Source: Methylobacteriaceae bacterium
GTDB taxonomy: Bacteria; Pseudomonadota; Alphaproteobacteria; Rhizobiales; Beijerinckiaceae
DNA length: 64,000 nt
NCBI GenBank assembly: GCA_947444195.1
Contig: CANEZL010000007.1
Location: forward strand, 4,235 to 68,234
Direction: 5' to 3'
A program made the position numbers and the translations under genes. Position 1 is the first letter of the stretch. Each line of letters begins with the position of its first letter. Of the stretch, positions 25,441 to 57,023 are shown piece after piece. The notes beneath the pieces were generated by a model. It was not told the DNA's origin and did not search any database. It worked only from the letters and a program-made list of their open reading frames with translations.

Positions 25441-25602
25441 CCTGCCGTCCTGCCTCTCGCGGGGGCGCCCGCGCCGGTGAGGCGGGGAGCCGGGTCCTGC
25501 GGGCGCTCGCCGAGGCCCGTCCGTGGCCCGCTTATGCCGCCGCCCACGCCACCGGCGCAAGCCTCGCCGCTGTCATCGCGGCCCGATCCCTCACGCGCGG
25601 CT

Positions 25603-25640
25603 TGCGCGCGATCTGCGCGCGATCTGCGCGCGACCTGCGC
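25603..25640. repeat. Tandem 11-bp repeat (TGCGCGCGATC) x3.5 in a divergent promoter
   Basis: Read directly from the sequence. Confidence 0.7.
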
Positions 25641-25700
25641 TTGGCGCGCCGGGCGCGGCACCGTACAACGGGCCATACCGACCTCCAGCCCCGCCCGTTC

Positions 25701-26522
25701 ATGACCCAGCAAGACCAAGCCGGCGCGCGCCGCGCACCCGAGGCGCCGATCCACGGGCCCGAGGGCTTCGAGGGCATGCGCCGGGCCGGGCGCCTCACCG
25801 CGGAGGCCCTCGACCTCCTGATGGAGGCCACCCAACCCGGCGTGACCACCGAGGCCCTCGACAGGCTCGCCTACGAGTTCGCCATGGACAACGGCGCCTA
25901 TCCGGCCTCGTTGCTCTATCGCGGCTATCCGAAGTCGATCTGCACCTCGATCAACCACGTGGTCTGCCACGGCATCCCCAACGACAAGCCGCTGCGCGAG
26001 GGCGACATCGTCAACCTCGACATCTGCCTGATCCTCGACGGCTGGCACGGTGATTCGAGCCGGATGGCCTATGTGGGCGAGGTGCCGCGCAAGGCCGCCC
26101 GCCTCTGCGAGATCACCTACGAGGCGCTGATGCGGGGCGTGGCCGCGGTGAGGCCCGGCGGCTCCACCAACGATATCGGCCGGGCGATCCAGACCTTCGC
26201 CGAGGCCGAGCGCTGCTCCGTGGTGCGGGATTTCTGCGGCCACGGCCTCGGCCGCATCTATCACGACGCGCCGACCATCCTGCACTACGTCGAGGCGAGC
26301 TACGACGTGCCGCTGCGGCCGGGACAGTTCTTCACCATCGAGCCGATGATCAATCTCGGCCGGCCCGCGGTGAAGGTGCTCTCCGACGGCTGGACCGCCG
26401 TGACCCGCGACCGCTCGCTCTCCGCCCAGTTCGAGCACACGGTGGGCGTCACAGAGACCGGCGTCGAGATCTTCACGGTCTCGCCGAAGGGGATGCACCA
26501 GCCCGTCGATATCGGCGCCTGA
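25701..26522 (+). CDS. map: Type I methionine aminopeptidase
   Basis: [50 protein letters not shown]. Confidence 0.96.
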
Positions 26523-26524
26523 GC

Positions 26525-27280
26525 GTGGCCCGCCGGCGTCCCGCCTCCGATCCGGAGGGCGCTCCCGCGGAGGGCACCCTTGCGGAAGGGCCGCCCGCGC
26601 CGGCGGAGGCGCCGCACTATCTCGGGCACCGGGACCGCCTGCGCGCCCGCTTCGCGCAAGTCGGCCCCGACGCGCTGCCCGATTACGAGCTGCTCGAGCT
26701 CGCCCTGTTCCGGGCGATTCCCCGGCGGGACGTGAAGCCCCTGGCCAAGGCCCTGATCCGCCGCTTCGGCAGCTTCGCCGAGGTCATCAGCGCCGAGCCC
26801 GCGCGTCTCGCCGAGGTGGAGGGCGTCAGCGCGGGCGTGGTCGCCGACCTGAAGCTCATGGAGGCCGCCGGCCGCCGCCTCGCCCGCGGCGCCATCACGG
26901 AGCGCCCGCTCCTCACCGCGTGGCCGGCGGTGCTCGAATATTGCCGGGCCACCATGGCCTTCGCCGCGCGCGAGGAGTTCCGCATCCTCTTCCTCGACAA
27001 GCGCAACCACCTGATCGCCGACGAGGTCCAGGGCCGCGGCACCGTCGACCACACCCCCGTCTATCCCCGCGAGGTCGCGCGGCGGGCGCTGGAACTCTCG
27101 GCCACGGCGATCATCCTCGTCCACAACCACCCGTCCGGCGATCCCGCGCCCTCGGCCGCCGACCTGCGCATGACGCGGGAGGTGATCGGCGTGCTCGATC
27201 CCCTCGGCATCGTGGTGCACGACCACCTGATCCTCGGGCGCGCGGGCCATGCGAGCCTCAAAGGTCTGAAGATGATCTGA
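26525..27280 (+). CDS. radC: RadC-family JAB-domain protein
   Basis: [50 protein letters not shown]. Confidence 0.93.
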
Positions 27281-27366
27281 GGCTTGTCGCGCGGATCGCC
27301 CTATATGGCGGCGGGTACGGCTTGGCATGGCGCGTCTCTTGCCTCTAGCCTGCCGTAACGGGGGGC

Positions 27367-28806
27367 ATGTGGATGGCGGGCGTGGCGTTCGACGAGATGA
27401 CCGGCAGGGGCGGTCCCGCGGCGGCGGATATCCGCGAAGCCTACGGCCAGCTGAAATCCTGGCTCGACGCGACGCCCACCGAGCATTTCAACACCCGCCG
27501 CAGCCAGGCGGAACTGCTGTTCCGGCGCATCGGCATCACCTTCGCGGTCTACGGCGACAACGAATCCACCGAGCGCCTCATCCCCTTCGACATCATCCCG
27601 CGGGTGATCACCAAGCCCGAGTGGAGCTTCCTGGAGCGGGGCCTGAAGCAGCGGGTGACCGCGATCAACGCCTTCCTCAAGGACGTCTACGGCCCGCAGG
27701 AATGCATCAAGGCCGGCATCATCCCCGCCGACCTCGTCTACCGGAACGCCCATTACCGCATGGAGATGCGGGGCTTCCGGGTGCCGCACGACCTCTACGT
27801 CCACATCGCCGGCATCGACATCGTCCGCACCGGCGAGAACGACTTCTTCGTGCTGGAGGACAATGCCCGCATCCCGTCCGGCGTGTCCTACATGCTGGAG
27901 AACCGGGAGGTGATGCTGCGCCTCTTCCCGGACCTGTTCTCCCGCCACCGGGTCGCGCCGGTGGAGAACTATCCCGACGCGCTGCTGGCGACGCTGCGCA
28001 GCCTCGCCCCGGCCACCGCCACGCGCGATCCCACCTGCGTGCTGCTGACGCCGGGCCGCTACAACTCGGCCTTCTACGAGCACTCGTTCCTGGCGGACAA
28101 GCTCGGCGTGGAACTGGTGGAGGCCACCGACCTCTTCACCAAGGACGACGTGGTCTACATGCGCACCACGGAGGGGCCGCGGCGCGTCGACGTGATCTAC
28201 CGCCGCCTCGACGACGACTTCCTCGATCCCCTGGTCTTCCGCCCCGATTCGGTGCTGGGCGTGCCGGGGCTGATGAACGCCTACGAGCGCGGCACCGTCA
28301 CCCTCGCCAACGCGGTGGGCACGGGGGTCGCCGACGACAAGGCGGTCTACAGCTACATGCCGGAGATCGTGCGCTTCTTCACCGGCGAGGAGCCGATCCT
28401 GCACAACGTGCCGACCTATCGCTGCCGCGAGAAGGACGCCTTCGCCTACGTGATGGACAACCTGAAGGACCTCGTGGTGAAGGAGGTCAACGGCTCGGGC
28501 GGCTACGGCATGCTGGTCGGCCCGCACGCGACCAAGCGCGAGATCGAGGAGTTCGGCCGGCGCCTGCGGCACGCGCCGGACGGCTTCATCGCCCAGCCGA
28601 CCCTGTCGCTCTCCACCTGCCCGACCTTCGTGGCCTCGGGCGTGGCGCCCCGCCACGTGGACCTGCGCCCCTTCGTGCTCTGCGGCGCGGACGAGATCCG
28701 CATCGTGCCGGGCGGCCTCACCCGCGTCGCCCTGAAGGAGGGCTCCCTCGTGGTGAATTCGAGCCAGGGCGGCGGCACCAAGGACACCTGGGTGCTCGAC
28801 GCCTGA
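27367..28806 (+). CDS. Circularly permuted type 2 ATP-grasp protein
   Basis: GITFAVYG...ERLIPFDIIPR, VLEDNARIPSGVSY, DVIYRRLDDDFLDP, GVADDKAVY, VVKEVNGSGGYGM, GLTRVAL..GSLVVNSSQGGGTKDTWV. Confidence 0.92.
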   Translation: MWMAGVAFDEMTGRGGPAAADIREAYGQLKSWLDATPTEHFNTRRSQAELLFRRIGITFAVYGDNESTERLIPFDIIPRVITKPEWSFLERGLKQRVTAINAFLKDVYGPQECIKAGIIPADLVYRNAHYRMEMRGFRVPHDLYVHIAGIDIVRTGENDFFVLEDNARIPSGVSYMLENREVMLRLFPDLFSRHRVAPVENYPDALLATLRSLAPATATRDPTCVLLTPGRYNSAFYEHSFLADKLGVELVEATDLFTKDDVVYMRTTEGPRRVDVIYRRLDDDFLDPLVFRPDSVLGVPGLMNAYERGTVTLANAVGTGVADDKAVYSYMPEIVRFFTGEEPILHNVPTYRCREKDAFAYVMDNLKDLVVKEVNGSGGYGMLVGPHATKREIEEFGRRLRHAPDGFIAQPTLSLSTCPTFVASGVAPRHVDLRPFVLCGADEIRIVPGGLTRVALKEGSLVVNSSQGGGTKDTWVLDA

Positions 28807-28873
28807 CGCCGGCGCGCGCCCTTCCTCCCACGCGGTCCCGCCCTCGGGCCGGGACATACCCAGCGAAGACATC

Positions 28874-29818
28874 ATGCTGTCCAGGACCGCCGACAACCTC
28901 TACTGGCTCTCGCGCTACGTCGAGCGCGCCGAGTTCGTGGCGCGCATCCTCGACGCCGCGCACCGCCTCGCCTCGCTCCCCACGAGCTACGGGGGCGGCG
29001 AGACCAACGAGTGGGCCTCGGCCCTCGCCTCCGCGGGCGATCCGGAGACGTTCAGGCTGCACTACGACGGGGTGAACAGCCACACGGTCTGCGACTTCCT
29101 CGCCTTCAGCCCCAAGAACCCGTCCTCGATCCGCACCTGCATCGAGACCGCGCGCGAGAACGCCCGCAGCGTGCGCACGGCGCTCACCACGGAGATGTGG
29201 GACACGATCAACGGCGCCTGGCTCGAACTGCGCGCCTACGAGGGCCGCGACCTGACGCGCGACGAGTTCTCGCGCTTCCTCGACTGGGTGAAGGGCATCT
29301 CGCTCACCTTCGACGGCTCGGCCTACCGCACGATGCTCAGGAACGACGCCTACTGGTTCACCCGGCTGGGCACCGCGATCGAGCGCGCCGACAACACCGC
29401 CCGCATCCTCGACGTGAAGTACAAGATCCTGCTGCCGGCGAGCGAGAAGGTCGGCGGCAGCCTGGACTACTTCCAGTGGACCACGATCCTGCGCGAGGTC
29501 TCGGCCTTCAACGCCTATCACTGGGTCTACCGGGAGAGCATCAAGCCGCTGCTGGTGGCCGACCTCTTGATCCTCAACCGGCAGATGCCGCGCTCCTTCG
29601 CGAGCTGCTACGGCATGCTCGTGGAGCATCTCGACCTCGTCGCCGACGCCTACGGACGGCGGGGACCGAGCCAGCGGCTCGCCAGCAACATGCTGGCGCG
29701 GCTCGAGGGCGAGGACATCGACCGCATCTTCGCCGCCGGCCTCCACGAGTTCGTGACCGCCTTCATCGGCGAGAACAACCGGGTGGGGGCGGCGATCGCC
29801 GAGCAATATCTGGTCTGA
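28874..29818 (+). CDS. Alpha-E domain-containing protein (DUF403)
   Basis: MLSRTADNLYWLSRYVERAE and IERADNTARILDVK (ER motifs), PRSF. Confidence 0.92.
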   Translation: MLSRTADNLYWLSRYVERAEFVARILDAAHRLASLPTSYGGGETNEWASALASAGDPETFRLHYDGVNSHTVCDFLAFSPKNPSSIRTCIETARENARSVRTALTTEMWDTINGAWLELRAYEGRDLTRDEFSRFLDWVKGISLTFDGSAYRTMLRNDAYWFTRLGTAIERADNTARILDVKYKILLPASEKVGGSLDYFQWTTILREVSAFNAYHWVYRESIKPLLVADLLILNRQMPRSFASCYGMLVEHLDLVADAYGRRGPSQRLASNMLARLEGEDIDRIFAAGLHEFVTAFIGENNRVGAAIAEQYLV

Positions 29819-29845
29819 CCGGGCGGCGAGGGGATAGACACGCGC

Positions 29846-30673
29846 ATGCGCATCTCCGTGGTCCACGAGACCCTCTACACCTACGAGCAGCCGGCCCGCG
29901 GCCTGATCCAGGTCCTGCGCCTGACCCCGCGCGACCACGACGGGCAGTATGTCCGGCGCTGGCGGATCGACACCTCCGTGGACGGCCGCCTCACCGAGCG
30001 CGAGGACGGGTTCGGCAACGTCGTGCACTGGTTCACGCCCGACGAGCCCGCCGACGCCCTGACCATCCGCGTCGCCGGCGAGGTCGACACCTTCGAGACC
30101 CACGGCATCGTGCGCGGCGCCGTCGAGCGCCTGCCCGACCTGTTCTACCTGCGCGAGAGCGAGTTCTGCGTCGCGGATACCGGCATCCAGGGCTTCGCCG
30201 AGGCGGTGGCGGCGGCGGGCGAACCCAGCACGCTGCCCCTGCTGCACCGCCTCCTCAGCGCCGTGCACGAGAAGGTCGCCTTCGTGCGCGGCCCGGCGAG
30301 CCAGGCGGTGCCGGCCGCCCGCGCCTTCGAGGCGGAGACCGGCAACTGCCAGGACGTCGCCCACGTCTTCATCGCCGCCGCCCGCCATCTCCAGATCCCG
30401 GCCCGCTACGTCTCCGGCTACCGCGGGCGCGACGACGAGGCGGAGGGGAGCGAGACCCCGCACGGCTGGGCCGAGGCCCTGGTGCCCGATCTCGGCTGGG
30501 TGGCCTTCGATCCCGCCCACGGCACCGGCACCTCGGAGGCCTATATCCGGGTCGCCGCCGGGCTGGACTATCTCGGCGCCGCGCCCATCCGCGGCAGCCG
30601 CACGGGCGGGGGCACCGAGACCCTGGACGTGCGCCTCAAGGTGGAGCAAGCCCAGGCCGCCAGGCAATCCTGA
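29846..30673 (+). CDS. Transglutaminase-like protein
   Basis: Catalytic triad GNCQDVAH / HGWAE / WVAFDP; ARYVSGY. Confidence 0.92.
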   Translation: MRISVVHETLYTYEQPARGLIQVLRLTPRDHDGQYVRRWRIDTSVDGRLTEREDGFGNVVHWFTPDEPADALTIRVAGEVDTFETHGIVRGAVERLPDLFYLRESEFCVADTGIQGFAEAVAAAGEPSTLPLLHRLLSAVHEKVAFVRGPASQAVPAARAFEAETGNCQDVAHVFIAAARHLQIPARYVSGYRGRDDEAEGSETPHGWAEALVPDLGWVAFDPAHGTGTSEAYIRVAAGLDYLGAAPIRGSRTGGGTETLDVRLKVEQAQAARQS

Positions 30674-30737
30674 CCGGGACCTGATTCCAGCGATCTTGAG
30701 CCCGCCGCCCCGCCGCGCGGGCGGGGGCGATTCTTCG

Positions 30738-31490
30738 ATGACCTACTGCGTCGGTGTTCTCGTCGAGGAAGGCCTCGTCATGGTGGCCGACACCCGCACC
30801 AATGCGGGGCTCGACGACATCTCCACCTACCGCAAGCTGCACCACTTCAACGTGCCGGGGGAGCGGGTGATGATGCTGGCCTCGGCCGGCAACCTCTCCG
30901 TGACCCAGTCGGTGCTGAGCCTGCTCACGGAGGGCGTGCCGGGCGAGGAGGGCGAGCCGGCCCAGCGGCTGATCGAGGCGCCGACCATGTTCCAGGCGGC
31001 CCAGCTCATCGGCCGCGCGATCCGCCGGGTGCGCGCCATCGAGCGGGCCGGCTTCGACGCGGCCCAGATCCGCTTCTCGATCTCGCTGCTGTTCGGCGGC
31101 CAGATCGGCGACGAGCCCATGCGGCTGTACCTGATCTACTCGGCCGGGAACTTCATCGAGTGCTCCACCGACGCGCCCTTCCTGCAGATCGGCGAGCACA
31201 AATACGGCAAGCCGATCCTCGACCGGGCGGTGCGGTTCGAGACCGACCTCTACGACGCCCTCAAGATCGGCCTCGTCTCGATGGACTCGACCATGCGCTC
31301 GAATCTCGGCGTCGGCCTGCCCATCGACATCGCCGTCGTCCGCCGCAACGCCCTCAATCTCGAGGTGAACCACCGGATCGAGGCCGGCGAGAGCTATTTC
31401 CACGACCTGCGCGAGCGCTGGTCCGCCGCGCTCCGTGCCGCTCACCGCGCCATCCCGCGCCCGCCCTACGGGCCGGCACAGAAATCGTAG
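30738..31490 (+). CDS. Anbu-type proteasome-like Ntn peptidase
   Basis: MTYCVG (Thr1 nucleophile after Met removal), ADTRTNAGLDDISTYRKL, GNFIE, QIGEHKYGKPILDR, STMRSNLGVGLPID. Confidence 0.9.
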   Translation: MTYCVGVLVEEGLVMVADTRTNAGLDDISTYRKLHHFNVPGERVMMLASAGNLSVTQSVLSLLTEGVPGEEGEPAQRLIEAPTMFQAAQLIGRAIRRVRAIERAGFDAAQIRFSISLLFGGQIGDEPMRLYLIYSAGNFIECSTDAPFLQIGEHKYGKPILDRAVRFETDLYDALKIGLVSMDSTMRSNLGVGLPIDIAVVRRNALNLEVNHRIEAGESYFHDLRERWSAALRAAHRAIPRPPYGPAQKS

Positions 31491-31518: not shown

Positions 31519-33282
31519 TCAGGCCGGCATCGGCTCGGCCTCGCCGTGCGCGGTGATCGAGCGCGTGTAGTCCGCCCAGAGCGCCGCGTAGACCGGCACG
31601 TCGCGCAGGAGCTCTTCGTGGCAGCCGCTGCCGAGGAGGCGGCCCTCGTCGAGGACGAGGATCCGGTCGGCGTGGCGCGCGGCCGCGAGGTGATGCGTCA
31701 CGAGGATCAGGAGCCGGTCGCGCCCCCAGGCCGCGAGCTTGCGCTCCAGCGCCAGAGCGGCCTCCGGATCGAGGAAGGCGGTCGGCTCGTCCAGGATCGC
31801 GATGGCGGGGTCGCGAAGCACCGCGCGGGCGACCGAGAGGCGCTGGCGCTGGCCGCCGGAGAGGGCGCGACCGCTCTCGCCGAGATCCGTCTCGGAGCCC
31901 TCCGGCAATCCCTCGACGAAATCGAGGGCCTCCGCGAAGCGGAGGGCCGCGCGGACGCCGTCCGGATCCTGCCGCAGGCCGGCGAGGTTGTCGCGCACAC
32001 TGCCGGAGAACAGCACGGTGTCCTGATCCACGGTGCCGATCCGGCCCCGCAGCCAGCGCGGATCGTAGTCCTTGAGATCGGCTCCGCCGAGGGTGACGCG
32101 GCCCGCATAATCCCGCTGGAGTCCGAGCAGGATGCGCAGCAGCGTCGATTTGCCCGAGCCGTTGCGCCCGACGATCGCCACGAGTCCGCGTTCGGGAAAC
32201 GTCGCATCGACCTCCCGCAGGGCGGGCCGCATCGCGCCCGGATAGGTGAGCGAGACCCCCTCGAACCGGATCCCGCCCGGCGCGATGCGGCGCAGGGGCG
32301 GTCGGCGGTCCGCCCGCTCGCGCGGCAGCGCCAGGAAACCGCCGATCTGCCGGATGGCGACGTTCACCTCCTGGGTGAGCCGCAGGATGTCGGCGCTGCC
32401 GAGGAGCGGCCCGGTGATCCGGACGGCGACGACCTGGATCGCCAGGAACTCGCCGACGGTGAGATGGCCGCCATACATCCGCCAGCAACCGACGCCGATG
32501 ACGAGCAGCGTCATGCCGCGCGAGACCGCCTGCGAGCGCAGGCCGTAGCGCCGCTGGAGGTCCATGACCGCGCGCAATTCGGCCAGCATGCCGTCGGTCA
32601 CGGCGTTCCAGCGCCGGGTCCGCGGCGCCTCCAAGGCGAGCGCCCGCACGGTGGCGAGCCCGGCCACGGTCTCGGCCAGCGCCCCTTCGCGGGCCGCGAT
32701 CGCCTTGTAATAGGCCTCCGCCGACTTCCAGATGCCGCTGATCTGGTTGCTGGCGACCAGCACGATCACCGGCGCCGACACGATCAGGGCGGCACCGACC
32801 GCGATGTCGTAGTAGAGGACGAGCCCCAAAGCCACGAGGGCGCCGCCCGCATCGATCACGCTGTGCGGCAGCTGGTGCAGGACGAAGTCGCGGACCTTTC
32901 CGATCTGCTTGAAATGGTTCAGCACCTCACCCGTCCGGAAGGCCGCGCCGTCGATCCGCACCCGCATGAGATGCGCGAAGGCGAGCCGCGAGACCCTCCG
33001 GTCGAGGAAGGCGCCGAGGTCGATGACGAGGCTCTGCCGGTAGGAGGACAGCGCGACCTCCGCGACGATGAAGGCGACCGCGAGCACGGCGAGACCGAGG
33101 AGCGGCAGGTCGGCCCGGCCAGCCACGATGGCGTCGACGATGCGCTGGGTCGCGACCGGGAAGACGAGGGCGGCACCGTACCCGGCGGCGATCGCCAGCA
33201 GCAGGCGGACGAGCCGGTCCTGCCGCAGGCGCAGGGTGCGCCCGATCCAGCGCCAGCCGAAGGATGAACCGGCGGTTCCCAT
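31519..33282 (-). CDS. ABC exporter (TMD+NBD), HlyB/peptidase-ABC-like but lacking a C39 domain
   Basis: TM region with QRIVDAIV, Walker A GRNGSGKST, LSGGQRQRL, LDEPTAFLD. Confidence 0.85.
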   Translation of the reverse strand: MGTAGSSFGWRWIGRTLRLRQDRLVRLLLAIAAGYGAALVFPVATQRIVDAIVAGRADLPLLGLAVLAVAFIVAEVALSSYRQSLVIDLGAFLDRRVSRLAFAHLMRVRIDGAAFRTGEVLNHFKQIGKVRDFVLHQLPHSVIDAGGALVALGLVLYYDIAVGAALIVSAPVIVLVASNQISGIWKSAEAYYKAIAAREGALAETVAGLATVRALALEAPRTRRWNAVTDGMLAELRAVMDLQRRYGLRSQAVSRGMTLLVIGVGCWRMYGGHLTVGEFLAIQVVAVRITGPLLGSADILRLTQEVNVAIRQIGGFLALPRERADRRPPLRRIAPGGIRFEGVSLTYPGAMRPALREVDATFPERGLVAIVGRNGSGKSTLLRILLGLQRDYAGRVTLGGADLKDYDPRWLRGRIGTVDQDTVLFSGSVRDNLAGLRQDPDGVRAALRFAEALDFVEGLPEGSETDLGESGRALSGGQRQRLSVARAVLRDPAIAILDEPTAFLDPEAALALERKLAAWGRDRLLILVTHHLAAARHADRILVLDEGRLLGSGCHEELLRDVPVYAALWADYTRSITAHGEAEPMPA

Positions 33283-33426
33283 GCGTCGAACCCCTCGAAT
33301 CGTGGGGGCGCATAGAGGCACGGTTCGGCCGGAGGGGCGACCGCATCCCGTGCGGGGCGGACCCGACTACCCCGTGTTCCGGTGCCGCGTTAGGCTGCCC
33401 GCGTCGCGAGACAGCGGGCGGACACC

Positions 33427-39550: not shown

Positions 39551-40132
39551 TCAGTGCGCCGTCGCGGTCCGGTCGAGGGCGCGGTCGAGGCTCGCCTGGT
39601 CCGGCGCCTTGCCGGTGAGGCGCTCCACGATCGCGGCGGCCGTCTCGCCCGCGATGGCGCGGACGTTGCCCATGGCCTGCTCGGTGCGGTCGCGCAGGGT
39701 CGCCTCGGAGGCGGCGAGCTTGGCGTTCAGCTCGGCCTCGAGGGACTTGCGCTTGGCCTCCGCCTCGGCGGTGAGCTGGTTGCGCGTGGTCTGCGCGATC
39801 TCGCGGGCGGAGGCCTGGGCGTCCCGCAGGGACTTCTCGTAGGCCGCGCCCGCCGCGTCGGCCTCGGCCTTCATGCGCTGCGCCTCGTCGAGGTCGCTCG
39901 CGAGCCGGCTGGCGCGGTCGTGCAGGATGCCCTGGATGCGCGGCAGGGCGACCTTGGACATCAGGTAGTAGAGCAGGCCGAAGGCCAGGGCGAGCCAGAC
40001 GAGCTGGGCCAGGAAGGTGTGGCTCTCGAAGGGCGGGAAGGCGTGCTTCTCGGCCGGGTGCAGGATCTCGCCCTTACCCGCGTAGACGTCGGTTCCGGGC
40101 GGCGGGGTGGTGAGGATGTTCTGCTGCGCCAT
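39551..40132 (-). CDS. F0F1 ATP synthase subunit b'
   Basis: [30 protein letters not shown]. Confidence 0.9.
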
Positions 40133-52435: not shown

Positions 52436-53110
52436 ATGGGTCTGCTCGATTCGGTGATCGGCGGCGTGCTCGGTCAGGTGCTCGGCGGCGGGCAGCGGGG
52501 GGGCGCAGGCGGCGCCATGTCGCCCCTGGTCAAGGCGCTCCTCATGCTGCTCCTCGCCAAGGGCGCGAGCGGCGGCTTCGGCGACATTTTTGGGCGCGGC
52601 CATGGCGGGGAACCCGGCCCCGAGGCCGACCGGTCGGACCGCTCCCCCGGCGCCGGCCCCTACGGCCGCGACGGCACCGGCGGCTGGGACCAGGACGGCG
52701 CCCGCCGCGACGCCCCGCTGCCCCCCGGCGATTTCAGCGATCTCTCCGGCATGCTCGACGGCCCCGGCGGCCCCGACCGCTCCCCCGGCGCCGGCCCCTA
52801 CGCCCATCTCGACCACGAACAGGGCGAGCGGCCCGATCTCGGCGGCCTCGACGGGCTGATCGACGGCTTCCGCAAGGGCGGCCTCGGCGAGGTGATCGAG
52901 TCCTGGATCGGCCCCGGCCAGAACCACCCCGTCCAGCCGAACCAACTCGCCCAGGCGCTCGGCCCCGACACCATCGACACCCTGGAGCGTGCCACGGGGA
53001 TGAACCGCGACACGCTGCTCGCCCAACTCGCCCAGGTGCTCCCGCAGGTGATCGACGGGCTCACGCCACAGGGACGGGTGCCGGGTGAGGGGGAGCGACG
53101 GGGGTGGTGA
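52436..53110 (+). CDS. YidB/DUF937-family protein with an internal low-complexity insertion
   Basis: MGLLDSVIGG, GLDGLIDGFRKGGLGEVIESWIGPGQNHPV, LAQVLPQVIDGLTPQG. Confidence 0.85.
   Translation: MGLLDSVIGGVLGQVLGGGQRGGAGGAMSPLVKALLMLLLAKGASGGFGDIFGRGHGGEPGPEADRSDRSPGAGPYGRDGTGGWDQDGARRDAPLPPGDFSDLSGMLDGPGGPDRSPGAGPYAHLDHEQGERPDLGGLDGLIDGFRKGGLGEVIESWIGPGQNHPVQPNQLAQALGPDTIDTLERATGMNRDTLLAQLAQVLPQVIDGLTPQGRVPGEGERRGW
52637..52802 (+). repeat. 28-bp perfect direct repeat inside the yidB-like gene (encodes DRSPGAGPY twice)
   Basis: GACCGCTCCCCCGGCGCCGGCCCCTACG at 52637-52664 and 52775-52802. Confidence 0.85.
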
Positions 53111-53402
53111 AAATTTTTTAAGTCAAATAAGTTGTCTCCTAAATATTTTGGTTCCTACGCGCGCTATCATTTTGCGGCGTAATTTATTGGGGTTAATTTT
53201 TCACATGCAGATATATTTTGGGCGATCTTATATTAATCAAGATGTATCGGTATCTGTATTATCGTGATTTGAGATTCCACCATGCAGTAAATCCTAATTT
53301 CTGCCTCCCAGTTGCATTTTTGCTTCAACGTAAGCCTATTCGAAATCAACCTAAGGCAGTAACTTGCGCTCGTAGGCGTGAGGCGCGTTAGGGAGAGCAA
53401 TT

Positions 53403-54779
53403 ATGCCATTAAGTGAATTTCTTATACAAGAGCTAAATCTCGATTTGCTGAATATTCGCATTGGAAGGCAAACAGATCAAAGATCAGCAATCCAGGCGAT
53501 GATCGCGGATCAAAAGCAAAAGCTCGTAAATTTGGCTTTGGACATAATTGATATGGGCGGCCTTAGTCCGGGCGAACCCATTTGGGTCACTGTGGATACA
53601 GACAATCCTGGCAAACAGATTGTCCTCGAAGGTAACAGGAGAATTGCTGCTTTAAAAATCATGGAGAATCCTAGATTGGCCGAAGGAACAGAAGTATACA
53701 CTTCATTCGTCCAGCTTGGAAAAGACTTTACTGAAAAACCCATTCGTAAAATTGAGGGTCAAGTGTTTGCTTCCCGTGAAGAAGCTTGGCCTTGGATAGA
53801 GCGAAGGCATATGGGCGCGGCATCAGGAGTCGCGCTCCAGAGATGGCGTTCGCTTGCCAAAGAGCGTTCTCGCGCCGGTGGAACCGGATCGGTTCGGCGC
53901 TCTCTTTTGGTGCTCGACTTCCTCGACGACGGCACAGACGAATTTGGTGATGTTGGCGATGTTATTGAAGCCAAATCAACTACGGTAGATCGTGTTTTAA
54001 ATAATCCGAACATAAAAGATCTGCTAGGAATCACGATCAATAGAACAGATCGTAAAATATCATTCGACAATGGGGATGAATTAGCGGGCCGCAGGCTCTT
54101 ACGTAATTTGATCGCGGAGATGGCAAAACCCGATTTTAAGTTTAGCAAGATTAGAGATGAAACAGACAGATTGAATTTTATCCGCGGGTTTGCAGATCAA
54201 TCAGTGCATGGGAGCGGTACTGCAGAAAATCCTGAAACAAAAAGTCCGGCCCCCCAAGAAATGCCTCAGTCAACTTCATCGCGGAAATCACGTTTAACCG
54301 ATCCTATTCGGAGCACGCTTGCGCCTCGAACAGGACCTCGCACAATTGCAAACGTTCAGGGGCTTCGTCTGAATAGAATTTATCGTGAGTGCCGCGAAAT
54401 AAAGCTTGATGGCAATGAGAACGCCGCTGCATTTTTATTACGCGTGTTCTTAGAGTTGAGTAGCGAAGCTTTTCTTATAGAAAAATCTATATCGATACCG
54501 GCCAAACATTCTGGCAAGAAGGTGTATTGGGGTGAATTTGGAATAACTTTAGAAGATAAAATCAACGCGGTAATGCCGATTATAGATACGACGCCGAAAA
54601 CTAAACAACAGCTCAAACCTGCACGGATCGCGATTGCAGATAAAGAGCGAGAAGGGTCAATCGATACGCTGCATGCATATCTTCATAATCTCAATCTGAC
54701 ACCATCTCCTGAGGCTCTGCGGGCAGCCTGGGACACGTGGGAAATGTATCTCACTTTGCTTCACACGGCTCGCCGCTAG
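53403..54779 (+). CDS. ParB/Srx-like N-terminal domain protein with a putative HEPN-like C-terminal domain
   Basis: L.LD..N.R...LA.DI...G..P.E..V...IVLEGNRRIAALK (ParB/Srx motif); C-terminal NAAAFLLRVFLELS...SIDTLHAYLHN...WD. Confidence 0.7.
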   Translation: MPLSEFLIQELNLDLLNIRIGRQTDQRSAIQAMIADQKQKLVNLALDIIDMGGLSPGEPIWVTVDTDNPGKQIVLEGNRRIAALKIMENPRLAEGTEVYTSFVQLGKDFTEKPIRKIEGQVFASREEAWPWIERRHMGAASGVALQRWRSLAKERSRAGGTGSVRRSLLVLDFLDDGTDEFGDVGDVIEAKSTTVDRVLNNPNIKDLLGITINRTDRKISFDNGDELAGRRLLRNLIAEMAKPDFKFSKIRDETDRLNFIRGFADQSVHGSGTAENPETKSPAPQEMPQSTSSRKSRLTDPIRSTLAPRTGPRTIANVQGLRLNRIYRECREIKLDGNENAAAFLLRVFLELSSEAFLIEKSISIPAKHSGKKVYWGEFGITLEDKINAVMPIIDTTPKTKQQLKPARIAIADKEREGSIDTLHAYLHNLNLTPSPEALRAAWDTWEMYLTLLHTARR

Positions 54780-54836
54780 TGCTGGCCAGCATGCAATAAA
54801 ATCGCTAGATGCTTGGTCGAGTCTGGAGACCCACAG

Positions 54837-55691
54837 ATGTTTGATAGCCCGCTACGATACCCTGGGGGCAAGGGGCGGCTTACGCAATATGTTATTGATT
54901 TGATTGAAATGAATGATTTAGGGGGAGGGCATTATGTGGAAACGTATGCTGGGGGTGCCGGCATAGCTGTCACGCTTCTGTATCTAGAATATGTGTCTCA
55001 CGTCCATCTCAATGATATAGATAAGGCTGTATATTCATTTTGGAAGGCGGCCATTGAGAGTACGGATAGTTTTGTAAAGCTTATCCATGAGACTCCACTA
55101 AATATAGATGAAAGACTACGACAGAAAGCGATATATAAGGACTGCAATTCAAGTTTTCTGGATTTAGGATTTGCTACGTTTTACCTTAATCGCACTAACC
55201 GCTCAGGCATTATACACGGCGGTGTGATTGGCGGAAGCAAACAGGATGGCGTTTACAAGATAGATGCTCGTTTTAATAGGAAAGAACTTGCTCGTCGTGT
55301 CGAGAAGCTAGCTAGTTATAAATCGCGCATAAGTTTATACAATAAAGACGCGGCAGATATAATTGCTTGTGATCTGTCCAATATTCCAAAAAAAACATTG
55401 GTTTATCTGGACCCGCCATACTACGCCAACGGAAGTAGACTTTACAGAAACACCTACAAGCATAAAGACCATGCACAAATAGCCGATTTGACGCGCACTA
55501 TTGAGCAGCCCTGGATTGTCTCGTATGATGACGCTCCGGAAGTATGCAGTTTATATAAGGAATATCGACAACAAAAATTCGGCCTTGGATATTCCGCTAA
55601 TTCTAGATACAAAGGTACTGAAGTTATGATCTACAGCGATCAGGTGAAAATACCAGGCCTTGTAGAGCCTTTTAGAGGTTTTGCAGCCTAA
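54837..55691 (+). CDS. Dam/D12-class N6-adenine DNA methyltransferase
   Basis: SPLRYPGGKGRL (motif X), YVETYAGGAG (I), LNDID (II), FYLNRTNRSG, VYLDPPYY (IV), WIVSYD; GGAG RBS before ATG 54837. Confidence 0.93.
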   Translation: MFDSPLRYPGGKGRLTQYVIDLIEMNDLGGGHYVETYAGGAGIAVTLLYLEYVSHVHLNDIDKAVYSFWKAAIESTDSFVKLIHETPLNIDERLRQKAIYKDCNSSFLDLGFATFYLNRTNRSGIIHGGVIGGSKQDGVYKIDARFNRKELARRVEKLASYKSRISLYNKDAADIIACDLSNIPKKTLVYLDPPYYANGSRLYRNTYKHKDHAQIADLTRTIEQPWIVSYDDAPEVCSLYKEYRQQKFGLGYSANSRYKGTEVMIYSDQVKIPGLVEPFRGFAA

Positions 55692-55763
55692 AAATCTAAA
55701 GTTTCATGTATGTATTTTATATTCTGTGAATATTATTGAAAATCCGACTGGTGATGCGCCGGG

Positions 55764-57023
55764 TTACACCCGCCGCATCACCAGCGACGCATTCGTCCCG
55801 CCAAACCCAAACGAGTTCGACAAAGCCACGTCCACCCGCTTGCGCTTGGCCTCGTGCGGCACGAGGTCGATCTTGGTCTCGACGCTGGGGTTGTCGAGGT
55901 TGAGCGTCGGCGGGAGGACGCCGTCGCGGATGGTGAGGATGGAGAAGATCGCCTCCACGGAGCCGGCGGCGCCCAGCAGGTGGCCGATGGCCGACTTGGT
56001 GGAGGACATGGAGGCTTGTGGAGCCGCGTCGCCGAGCAGGCGCTCCACGGCCTTCAGCTCCAATTCGTCGCCCATGGGCGTCGAGGTGCCGTGGGCGTTG
56101 ATGTAGTCGATCTGGGACGGGTCGATGCCCGCGCGCTTCACGGCGGCGCTCATGCAGCGGAAGGCGCCGTCCCCGTCCGGCGAGGGGGAGGTGATGTGGT
56201 AGGCGTCCCCCGAGAGGCCGTAGCCGATGATCTCGGCGTAGATCTTGGCGCCGCGGGCCTTGGCGTGCGCGTACTCCTCCAGCACCACGATGCCGGCGCC
56301 CTCGCCCATGACGAAGCCGTCGCGGTCGCGGTCGTAGGGGCGCGAGGCCTGGACCGGGCGGTCGTTGAAGCCGGTGGACAGCGCCCGGCAGGCGGCGAAG
56401 CCCGCCAGCGACAGGCGGTTCACGGGGGATTCCGCGCCGCCCGCCACCATCACGTCCGCGTCGCCGAAGGCGATGAGGCGGGCCGCGTCGCCGATGGCGT
56501 GGGCGCCGGTGGAGCAGGCGGTGACGACCGCGTGGTTCGGGCCCTTCAGCCCGTGGGCGATGGAGATCTGCCCCGAGGCGAGGTTGATGATGCGGCCGGG
56601 GATGAAGAAGGGCGAGACCCGGCGCGGGCCCTTCTCGTGCAGGGTGATCGAGGCGTCGTAGATGCCGCCGATGCCGCCGATGCCGGAGCCCACGAGCACG
56701 CCCGTGGCGCACTGGTCCTCATGGGAGGTCGGGTGCCAGTCGGCGTCGTCCAGCGCCTCCTTGGCGGCGGCGATGGCGTAGACGATGAAGGGATCGACCT
56801 TGCGCTGCTCCTTCACCTCCATCGCCGCGTCGGGGTTGAAGGTGCCGTTCGTGCCGTCGCCGAGGGGAATCTGGCAGGCGATCTTGCAGGCGAGATCGTC
56901 GGTCTCGAAGGAGGAGACCCGGGCCGCGCCGCTGTCCCCGGCGATCAGACGGCTCCAGACGTGCTCGACACCGCTGCCGAGCGGCGTGACCATGCCCAGA
57001 CCCGTGACGACCACACGCCGCAT
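55764..57023 (-). CDS. fabF: Beta-ketoacyl-ACP synthase II
   Basis: MRRVVVTGLG, VTACSTGAHAIG, YINAHGTST, KSAIGHLLGAAG, SNSFGFGGTN. Confidence 0.97.
   Translation of the reverse strand: MRRVVVTGLGMVTPLGSGVEHVWSRLIAGDSGAARVSSFETDDLACKIACQIPLGDGTNGTFNPDAAMEVKEQRKVDPFIVYAIAAAKEALDDADWHPTSHEDQCATGVLVGSGIGGIGGIYDASITLHEKGPRRVSPFFIPGRIINLASGQISIAHGLKGPNHAVVTACSTGAHAIGDAARLIAFGDADVMVAGGAESPVNRLSLAGFAACRALSTGFNDRPVQASRPYDRDRDGFVMGEGAGIVVLEEYAHAKARGAKIYAEIIGYGLSGDAYHITSPSPDGDGAFRCMSAAVKRAGIDPSQIDYINAHGTSTPMGDELELKAVERLLGDAAPQASMSSTKSAIGHLLGAAGSVEAIFSILTIRDGVLPPTLNLDNPSVETKIDLVPHEAKRKRVDVALSNSFGFGGTNASLVMRRV

Follow-up and report, generated by a model that had tools for sequence, protein, structure and literature searches.

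Four consecutive forward-strand genes in a 64-kb stretch of DNA from a Methylobacteriaceae bacterium (contig CANEZL010000007.1; the whole stretch is called the window here, and its positions are used throughout) almost certainly constitute an intact Anbu operon of the canonical kind on a Methylobacterium chromosome. The operon codes for a circularly permuted ATP-grasp ligase, an Alpha-E protein, a transglutaminase-like protein as well as Anbu (ancestral beta subunit), a relative of the proteasome. The four-gene Anbu operon is an already known system, and this copy is a typical, ordinary and vertically inherited one. What is new from it is a conserved, predicted sigma-54 promoter as a clue to the biochemical job of the system.

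As far as the summaries in PMC5666114 and PMC6376114 go, the Anbu operon was described by Valas & Bourne in 2008 and by Iyer et al. in 2009. Structures of Anbu have been solved, and no peptidase activity on standard substrates was found (Fuchs et al. 2017, PMC5666114; Piasecka et al. 2018, PMC6376114), and in a survey of 2021 the operon was still without a function (PMC8665760). A functional assignment for Anbu, its operon families or the M. tuberculosis homologues was not found in the literature up to 2026; in a preprint of that year, the M. tuberculosis ATP-grasp homologue Rv2411c served only as a negative candidate. The view taken in a preliminary description of this DNA, namely that the system is described but functionally open, agrees with the papers of 2017, 2018 and 2021, which report no function or substrate.

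Four genes with intact catalytic residues

The four genes of the operon are the following:

27373..28806, forward strand: circularly permuted ATP-grasp ligase, 477 aa (Pfam PF14403/PF04174, PDB 3N6X)
28874..29818, forward strand: Alpha-E protein, 314 aa, with two ER motifs (Pfam PF04168)
29846..30673, forward strand: transglutaminase-like protein, 275 aa (Bact_transglu_N and Transglut_core; PF08379, PF01841), from Pfam and alignment to PDB 3ISR
30738..31490, forward strand: Anbu, 250 aa, Anbu-1 subtype (PDB Anbu matches, Thr1/Asp17/Lys32)

In the list of open reading frames (ORFs) of the window, four consecutive forward-strand ORFs (27367-28806, 28874-29818, 29846-30673 and 30696-31490) fill positions 27367-31490. 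The first ORF opens at 27367, and the start kept in relatives is the ATG at 27373; Anbu starts at the ATG at 30738 (MTYCVG) and not at the TTG at 30696 that opens its ORF. The GC content of the window is high (about 72%), and that of third codon positions (GC3) amounts to 0.95-0.97 in all four ORFs, which indicates that all of them are real genes. For the ATP-grasp, Alpha-E and transglutaminase-like genes, NCBIfam holds no specific model.

The ATP-grasp protein matches the CP_ATPgrasp_2/1 families of Pfam (PF14403, E 2.9e-165; PF04174, E 4.6e-152), with a full-length family-model match of 550 bits against a cut-off of 32, and in the PDB sequence search it matches the structural-genomics entry 3N6X (E 6.6e-200). 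Its AlphaFold2 (AF2) model, with a predicted local distance difference test (pLDDT) score of 80.9, superposes on 3N6X with a template modelling (TM) score of 0.87-0.92, and 170 of its residues recur in 97% or more of 81 orthologues. The Alpha-E protein matches PF04168 (E 2.5e-95) over its positions 1-313 and over model positions 1-294 of 294. Both of its ER motifs, Glu17-Arg18 (28922) and Glu170-Arg171 (29381), were checked directly in the codons and are invariant in 78 sequences. A solved relative of Alpha-E was found neither by PDB sequence search nor by a fold search of the PDB, where the best Foldseek E was 0.43 with TM values of at most 0.22 and, hence, no match.

The transglutaminase-like protein carries Bact_transglu_N (E 2.3e-22) and Transglut_core (E 2.4e-19) domains and aligns with PDB 3ISR across the triad region, where the codons for Cys168 (GNCQD; 30347), His206 (30461) and Asp222 (30509) are present. 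For Anbu, the match to the Pfam Proteasome family is weak (E 1.3e-05), and its sequence identity with Anbu proteins of known crystal structure is high: matches to PDB structures including 5NYW range from E 5e-81 to 2e-59, with the consensus Anbu-1 protein 5LOY as the best one (E 4.8e-81, full length), Hyphomicrobium 5NYJ/5NYF at about 1e-70 and P. aeruginosa 5LOX at 1.9e-62. The codons for Met (30738), Thr1 (30741), Asp17 (30789) and Lys32 (30834) were checked directly, and among 57 orthologues at least 97% retain T1/D17/K32. Thus, the claim that four adjacent genes retain intact catalytic features (ATP-grasp motifs, ER motifs, a Cys-His-Asp triad and Thr1), which the preliminary description had made, was confirmed by Pfam and PDB searches giving the expected family matches and by the presence of the catalytic codons.

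Judged by its residues, the S1 pocket of Anbu (T20/Y30/S48/L52/T55) is close to the published pocket of Anbu-1 (T20/F30/T48/L52/S55), which is amphiphilic, and unlike that of Anbu-2, which is basic (PMC5666114). Since, in addition, no PDB entry matches better than the consensus protein of Anbu-1, the protein is assigned to the Anbu-1 subtype. The same four families in the same order make up the Anbu operons of Pseudomonas aeruginosa, Yersinia bercovieri and Hyphomicrobium, and the known operons share with this one the Anbu-1-type Thr1/Asp17/Lys32, the amphiphilic S1 pocket and the absence of an AAA+ partner. Nothing essential differs, the S1 changes at positions 30, 48 and 55 being conservative; what sets this locus apart from the known ones are the map-radC genes upstream, an ABC (ATP-binding cassette) exporter downstream and a recognisable sigma-54 promoter.

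In the genome collection, confirmed relatives of the ATP-grasp protein number at least 596, and 80 loci from Rhizobiales, Caulobacterales, Sphingomonadales and Burkholderiales were compared. The order ATP-grasp, Alpha-E, transglutaminase is invariant in them, with Anbu as the fourth gene in most. Each genome sampled from the genus, 25 with the present one, encodes exactly one Anbu, at 78-92% identity to the copy described here, and Anbu is present in only 5 of the 17 genera sampled in the order. The related loci place the host in the genus Methylobacterium, and the closest of them among the matches listed is that of M. oxalidis NBRC 107715 (94% identity in ATP-grasp). This wide occurrence, together with one copy per sampled genome of the genus, indicates that the cluster is common and passed on vertically. 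In the Methylorubrum clade, a co-oriented gene for a ProP-like metabolite/H+ symporter of the major facilitator superfamily (MFS) is inserted between Alpha-E and transglutaminase (L022:4957-6432, reverse strand; L026:3001-4647, forward strand; L036:9810-11312, forward strand); it scores 493 bits against the ProP model, below the cut-off of 544.

A conserved, predicted sigma-54 promoter upstream of ATP-grasp

Within the 86 nt that separate radC from the ATP-grasp gene, a -24/-12 element, TGGCGCGTCTCTTGC, lies at 27328-27342, about 30 nt upstream of the ATP-grasp start. The corresponding feature is:

27328..27343, forward strand: predicted sigma-54-type promoter TGGCGCGTCTCTTGCC, with the -24 GG at 27329-30 and the -12 GC at 27341-42

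Of the 10 positions that the sigma-54 consensus TGGCAC-N5-TTGC specifies, the element matches 9, and its spacing between GG and GC is correct. Only two sites in the whole window reach this level; the other one (39655-39669, forward strand) lies within a gene of the reverse strand and is probably due to chance. All ten relatives from the genus retain the element in the form TGGC-N7-CTTGC, about as far from the start codon as here, and among them are four genomes whose upstream flank is unrelated. When the 250 nt upstream of ATP-grasp were scanned in 77 diverse loci, with the reverse strand of the same segments as control, matches of at least 9/10 were obtained upstream of the orthologous gene in 37 of the 77 loci, whereas the reverse strand gave none in 77 and shuffles gave 0.4 (Fisher 5e-14); for matches of at least 8/10, the figures were 51 versus 6. 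The 77 loci are phylogenetically related, so that these are not independent events, and they span several families and two classes. As predicted from these motifs, the sigma-54 promoter is conserved across many Alpha- and Betaproteobacteria.

We conclude from these data that the operon is most likely one transcription unit, predicted to start from the sigma-54 promoter directly upstream of ATP-grasp, since the order of the first three genes is invariant, the intergenic gaps are short (67, 27 and 64 nt), the next gene is convergent, and neither terminator-like sites nor sigma-70-like promoters were predicted inside the operon. Internal terminators or attenuators were rejected as candidates for the same lack of terminator-like sites and because the hairpins of the three gaps fold no better than shuffled sequence (z -0.4 to +0.6).

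RpoN is encoded in the genome, as are six clear enhancer-binding proteins (EBPs), which sigma-54 requires as activators. Given the promoter, the operon would be expected to be switched on by an EBP, and by analogy with Burkholderia and Pseudomonas this is probably NtrC acting under nitrogen limitation. The conserved element fits the control and induction that have been published: the homologous cluster I35_5080-83 of B. cenocepacia is strongly NtrC- and sigma-54-dependent (PMC5491218), Anbu is up in nitrogen-limited P. putida according to the citations of that work in PMC5666114 and PMC6376114, and in marine metagenomes the domains of the operon co-vary with those of urea metabolism (PMC3597751). 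The B. cenocepacia cluster (I35_5080-5083; DUF404/407, DUF403 and two transglutaminase-domain proteins) has the same ATP-grasp/Alpha-E/transglutaminase core as the operon described here and differs in that a large transglutaminase-domain protein takes Anbu's place (PMC5491218). Its sigma-54 dependence, which was measured there and is predicted here, agrees with the promoter motif of the window.

Proposed ligation of small molecules versus possible tagging of proteins

The nearest fold neighbours of the ATP-grasp model after 3N6X are (homo)glutathione synthetases (E 1e-13 to 2e-15, TM 0.55-0.65), and further ones are E. coli glutathionylspermidine synthetase/amidase (Gss), trypanothione synthetase-amidase, YgiC/YjfC and the ligase Cp1B of the E-64 pathway. 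Judged from the predicted model, all neighbours beyond 3N6X are small-molecule or short-peptide ligases, and no protein-modifying ATP-grasp enzyme is among the 50 best fold matches listed. Two of the neighbours occur in nature as fusions with a papain-like amidase, which reverses the reaction of the ligase. In Gss (PDB 2IO8) and trypanothione synthetase-amidase, whose ATP-grasp fold is related to the one here (Foldseek E about 1e-11, TM 0.47-0.49), a papain-like Cys-His amidase accompanies the ligase and splits the very bond that the ligase forms, and it is to this pairing that we liken the operon. Unlike the operon, whose amidase is a separate protein with transglutaminase fold, these enzymes carry theirs as a fused CHAP domain, and Alpha-E and Anbu have no counterpart in them. 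For the ATP-grasp orthologue of Yersinia, only release of phosphate from ATP has been reported (PMC6376114).

The ATP-grasp and Alpha-E genes are adjacent wherever the contig allows it in the 80 related loci. A second, "large" amidoligase system was found in the same genome on contig C19 (L109:4019-9927, forward strand), which consists of a 1130-aa Bact_transglu_N/Transglut_core/DUF2126 protein followed by a CP_ATPgrasp-Alpha-E fusion; a divergent Peptidase_Mx/zinc-ribbon gene adjoins it (L109:2696-3952, reverse strand), and no sigma-54 motif was found upstream of the system. It shares with the Anbu operon the three domain families ATP-grasp, Alpha-E and transglutaminase, and is distinguished from it by the fusion of proteins, by the extra DUF2126 amidoligase-like domain and the divergent Peptidase_Mx gene, and by the lack of Anbu. 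The fusion suggests that ATP-grasp and Alpha-E act as one unit, as partners rather than as enzyme and substrate.

The AF2 model of Alpha-E is all-helical (pLDDT 86.6, predicted TM score 0.87) and places the glutamates of both ER motifs inside long, confidently modelled helices, with no flexible tail; this predicted setting is unlike the flexible acceptor tails that protein-modifying ATP-grasp enzymes use. At the C-terminus of Alpha-E (29804-29818) and of its orthologues, a near-invariant QYL plus one residue was observed. QYL docking tails are known from Mpa and Bpa, partners of the mycobacterial proteasome. A role of this end in docking to Anbu was rejected, since it is equally conserved in seven genomes without any Anbu and since it forms the packed last helix of the AF2 model (H290-313, high pLDDT) rather than a free tail.

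These seven genomes keep the three-gene core and have no Anbu anywhere in the genome. In others, Anbu lies 2-4 kb or 210 kb from the core; in the latter case (G038, contig C3, L023), the distance is to the genome's ATP-grasp gene, and the three partners are all absent within 8 kb of Anbu. As far as gene content can tell, Anbu is accessory and appears dispensable to the three-gene core. A metagenome-assembled genome (MAG) of Pseudochelatococcus shows the order ATP-grasp, Alpha-E, Anbu and a divergent transglutaminase-like gene (28% identity; L043:9539-11167). In 18 of 72 orthologues, among them those of Methylobacterium oryzihabitans and Bosea, Ala, Ser, Pro or Gly stands in place of the catalytic Cys of the transglutaminase-like protein, while His and Asp are kept (loci L037-L042, L044, L049, L053, L056, L057, L066, L068, L069, L071, L072, L088 and L091). 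Five of six Anbu-less genomes belong to this Cys-less set, which represents few independent events. The Cys-less orthologues may be pseudo-enzymes or have a non-catalytic role. Taken together, the fusion, the helical ER motifs, the fold neighbours, the dispensability of Anbu and the loss of the Cys suggest that Alpha-E is a partner of the ligase rather than a tagged substrate.

A ligase-plus-hydrolase logic is the best general reading of these genes. With regard to substrates and the direction of flux, we infer that ATP-grasp and Alpha-E would form a two-part ATP-dependent carboxylate-amine ligase, whose product would be an amide-linked small molecule such as a short peptide or a conjugate of an amino acid or a polyamine. 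The papain-fold transglutaminase-like protein would hydrolyse or transfer the bond made by the ligase, following the synthetase-plus-amidase logic of glutathionylspermidine synthetase/amidase, and Anbu would be an optional add-on that supplies or trims peptides, so that the four proteins together could serve as a nitrogen-economy module. This scheme, with a small amide-linked product on which, or on whose precursors, the amidase and the optional Anbu act, is tentative and falls somewhat short of an even chance; for the explanation as a whole, that is, the Anbu operon as a sigma-54-dependent unit with a ligase/amidase mechanism, we consider the chances to be balanced.

Several points weigh against this explanation. 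The likeness to glutathionylspermidine synthetase exists at the fold level only, without membership at the sequence level: in Pfam, even at E 10, ATP-grasp matches only CP_ATPgrasp families and no glutathionylspermidine synthetase family, and the PDB profile search returned 3N6X only. Moreover, the fold neighbours mirror the descent of the permuted ATP-grasp clade and do not determine which substrate is used. Anbu assembles into a proteasome-like dodecamer, and proteasome inhibitors of the peptide type react with its Thr1 (PMC5666114), which argues for polypeptides rather than metabolites as substrates, and this architecture is the chief argument against a purely small-molecule role. In published pull-downs, no stable complexes formed among the four proteins, and Anbu was inactive on standard peptides (PMC6376114). 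As to regulation, about a third of the sampled loci (Brevundimonas, Microvirga and some Bosea) are without a -24/-12 match, and NtrC boxes of the enteric type occur in front of the -24 element no more often than in shuffles, for which reason such a box was rejected as a candidate; no shared 8-mer stands out in this region either.

Tagging of proteins or peptides, as put forward after Iyer et al. 2009, is a rival reading that we hold to be unlikely. Here, ATP-grasp would attach amino acids to a glutamate in Alpha-E or in other proteins in the manner of RimK and tubulin ligases, and the transglutaminase-like peptidase and Anbu would remove the tag or degrade the tagged protein, as an analogue of pupylation and proteasome combined that is independent of ubiquitin. 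The combination of a ligase with two amide-bond hydrolase folds speaks for it, as does the proteasome-like active site of Anbu, which binds inhibitors, and hypotheses along these lines have been published (PMC6376114). However, the gaps between the genes are too small for a tag ORF, no AAA+ unfoldase is found near the operon (the neighbours being Map, RadC, an ABC exporter and thi genes), the ER glutamates do not lie in tails, ATP-grasp and Alpha-E are fused in the paralogous C19 system, protein-modifying enzymes are missing from the fold matches, and the core persists without Anbu and, in part of the orthologues, without the transglutaminase Cys.

The link to nitrogen starvation also parallels the role of the Pup-proteasome system, which is linked to nitrogen starvation and serves the recycling of amino acids. 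This system of Actinobacteria (PafA, Dop, Mpa and 20S) resembles the operon in joining a carboxylate-amine ligase, an amidase and a hydrolase of the proteasome family. Unlike it, the operon has neither a small tag gene nor an AAA+ unfoldase, its ligase has an ATP-grasp instead of a glutamine-synthetase-like fold, and its Anbu, which would assemble into open rings, appears dispensable to the core. It was along the lines of tagging that the preliminary description had gone beyond its identification of the genes and their known but open status, both of which stand. Its proposal that amino acids are ligated onto Alpha-E finds no support and is hard to reconcile with the helical ER motifs, the fusion and the small substrates of the fold neighbours, and reversal of the modification by transglutaminase and Anbu is hard to square with the seven Anbu-less genomes and with the loss of the catalytic Cys in a quarter of the orthologues. 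That a ligase controlled by sigma-54 and NtrC marks proteins or peptides in nitrogen starvation for the transglutaminase-like protein and Anbu is, in our view, quite improbable.

There is little likelihood, too, that Anbu is a stand-alone, activator-independent bulk protease for nitrogen starvation and that the other three genes are merely co-regulated and have an unrelated metabolic role. Such a separation would agree with the genomes in which 2 to 210 kb separate Anbu from the trio and with those in which the trio occurs alone, and Fuchs et al. favour protein degradation and rate peptide synthesis as less likely (PMC5666114). On the other hand, peptidase activity was not detected in vitro (PMC6376114), and Anbu directly follows the trio in most of the 80 loci, in two proteobacterial classes; this long-range conservation of gene order indicates a functional link between Anbu and the trio.

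Neighbouring genes and significance of the operon

The operon is flanked in the window by the following genes:

25602-27280, forward strand: type I methionine aminopeptidase (map) and RadC/JAB gene, directly upstream of the operon
31519-33321, reverse strand: type-I-secretion/HlyB-like ABC exporter, converging on Anbu with a 28-nt gap

It is very improbable that the cluster is larger than four genes and includes Map and RadC/JAB or the convergent exporter: map and radC directly precede the operon on its own strand, and removal of Met is required for exposing Thr1 of Anbu, but their pairing with the operon recurs only in Methylobacterium, Bosea, Bauldia and one MAG and is missing from most loci (Bradyrhizobium, Xanthobacteraceae, Brevundimonas, Burkholderiales), the gap is variable (up to 1.5 kb), and the exporter adjoins Anbu in only a few Methylobacterium genomes. 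Since, besides their limited recurrence, the sigma-54 promoter lies downstream of both, between radC and ATP-grasp, map-radC is regarded as lineage synteny and was rejected as a part of the system; the exporter was likewise rejected as a transporter of the operon's product for its rare occurrence. Elsewhere in the window, a low-GC islet was observed at 53000-56000 (0.46-0.63 versus about 0.72 elsewhere).

Anbu is the least understood of the widespread relatives of the proteasome, and its partners have been without an assigned reaction since 2008-2009. The copy described here leaves this standing unchanged, since it is a typical and vertically inherited member of the family. If the marking of proteins or peptides were true, the operon would represent one more tag-and-degrade pathway of bacteria, which would occur widely in Proteobacteria and depend on neither ubiquitin nor Pup. 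The by-products of the present analysis, that is, the conservation of the promoter, the fusion, the fold kinship, the dispensability of Anbu and the loss of the Cys, could aid the design of decisive experiments.

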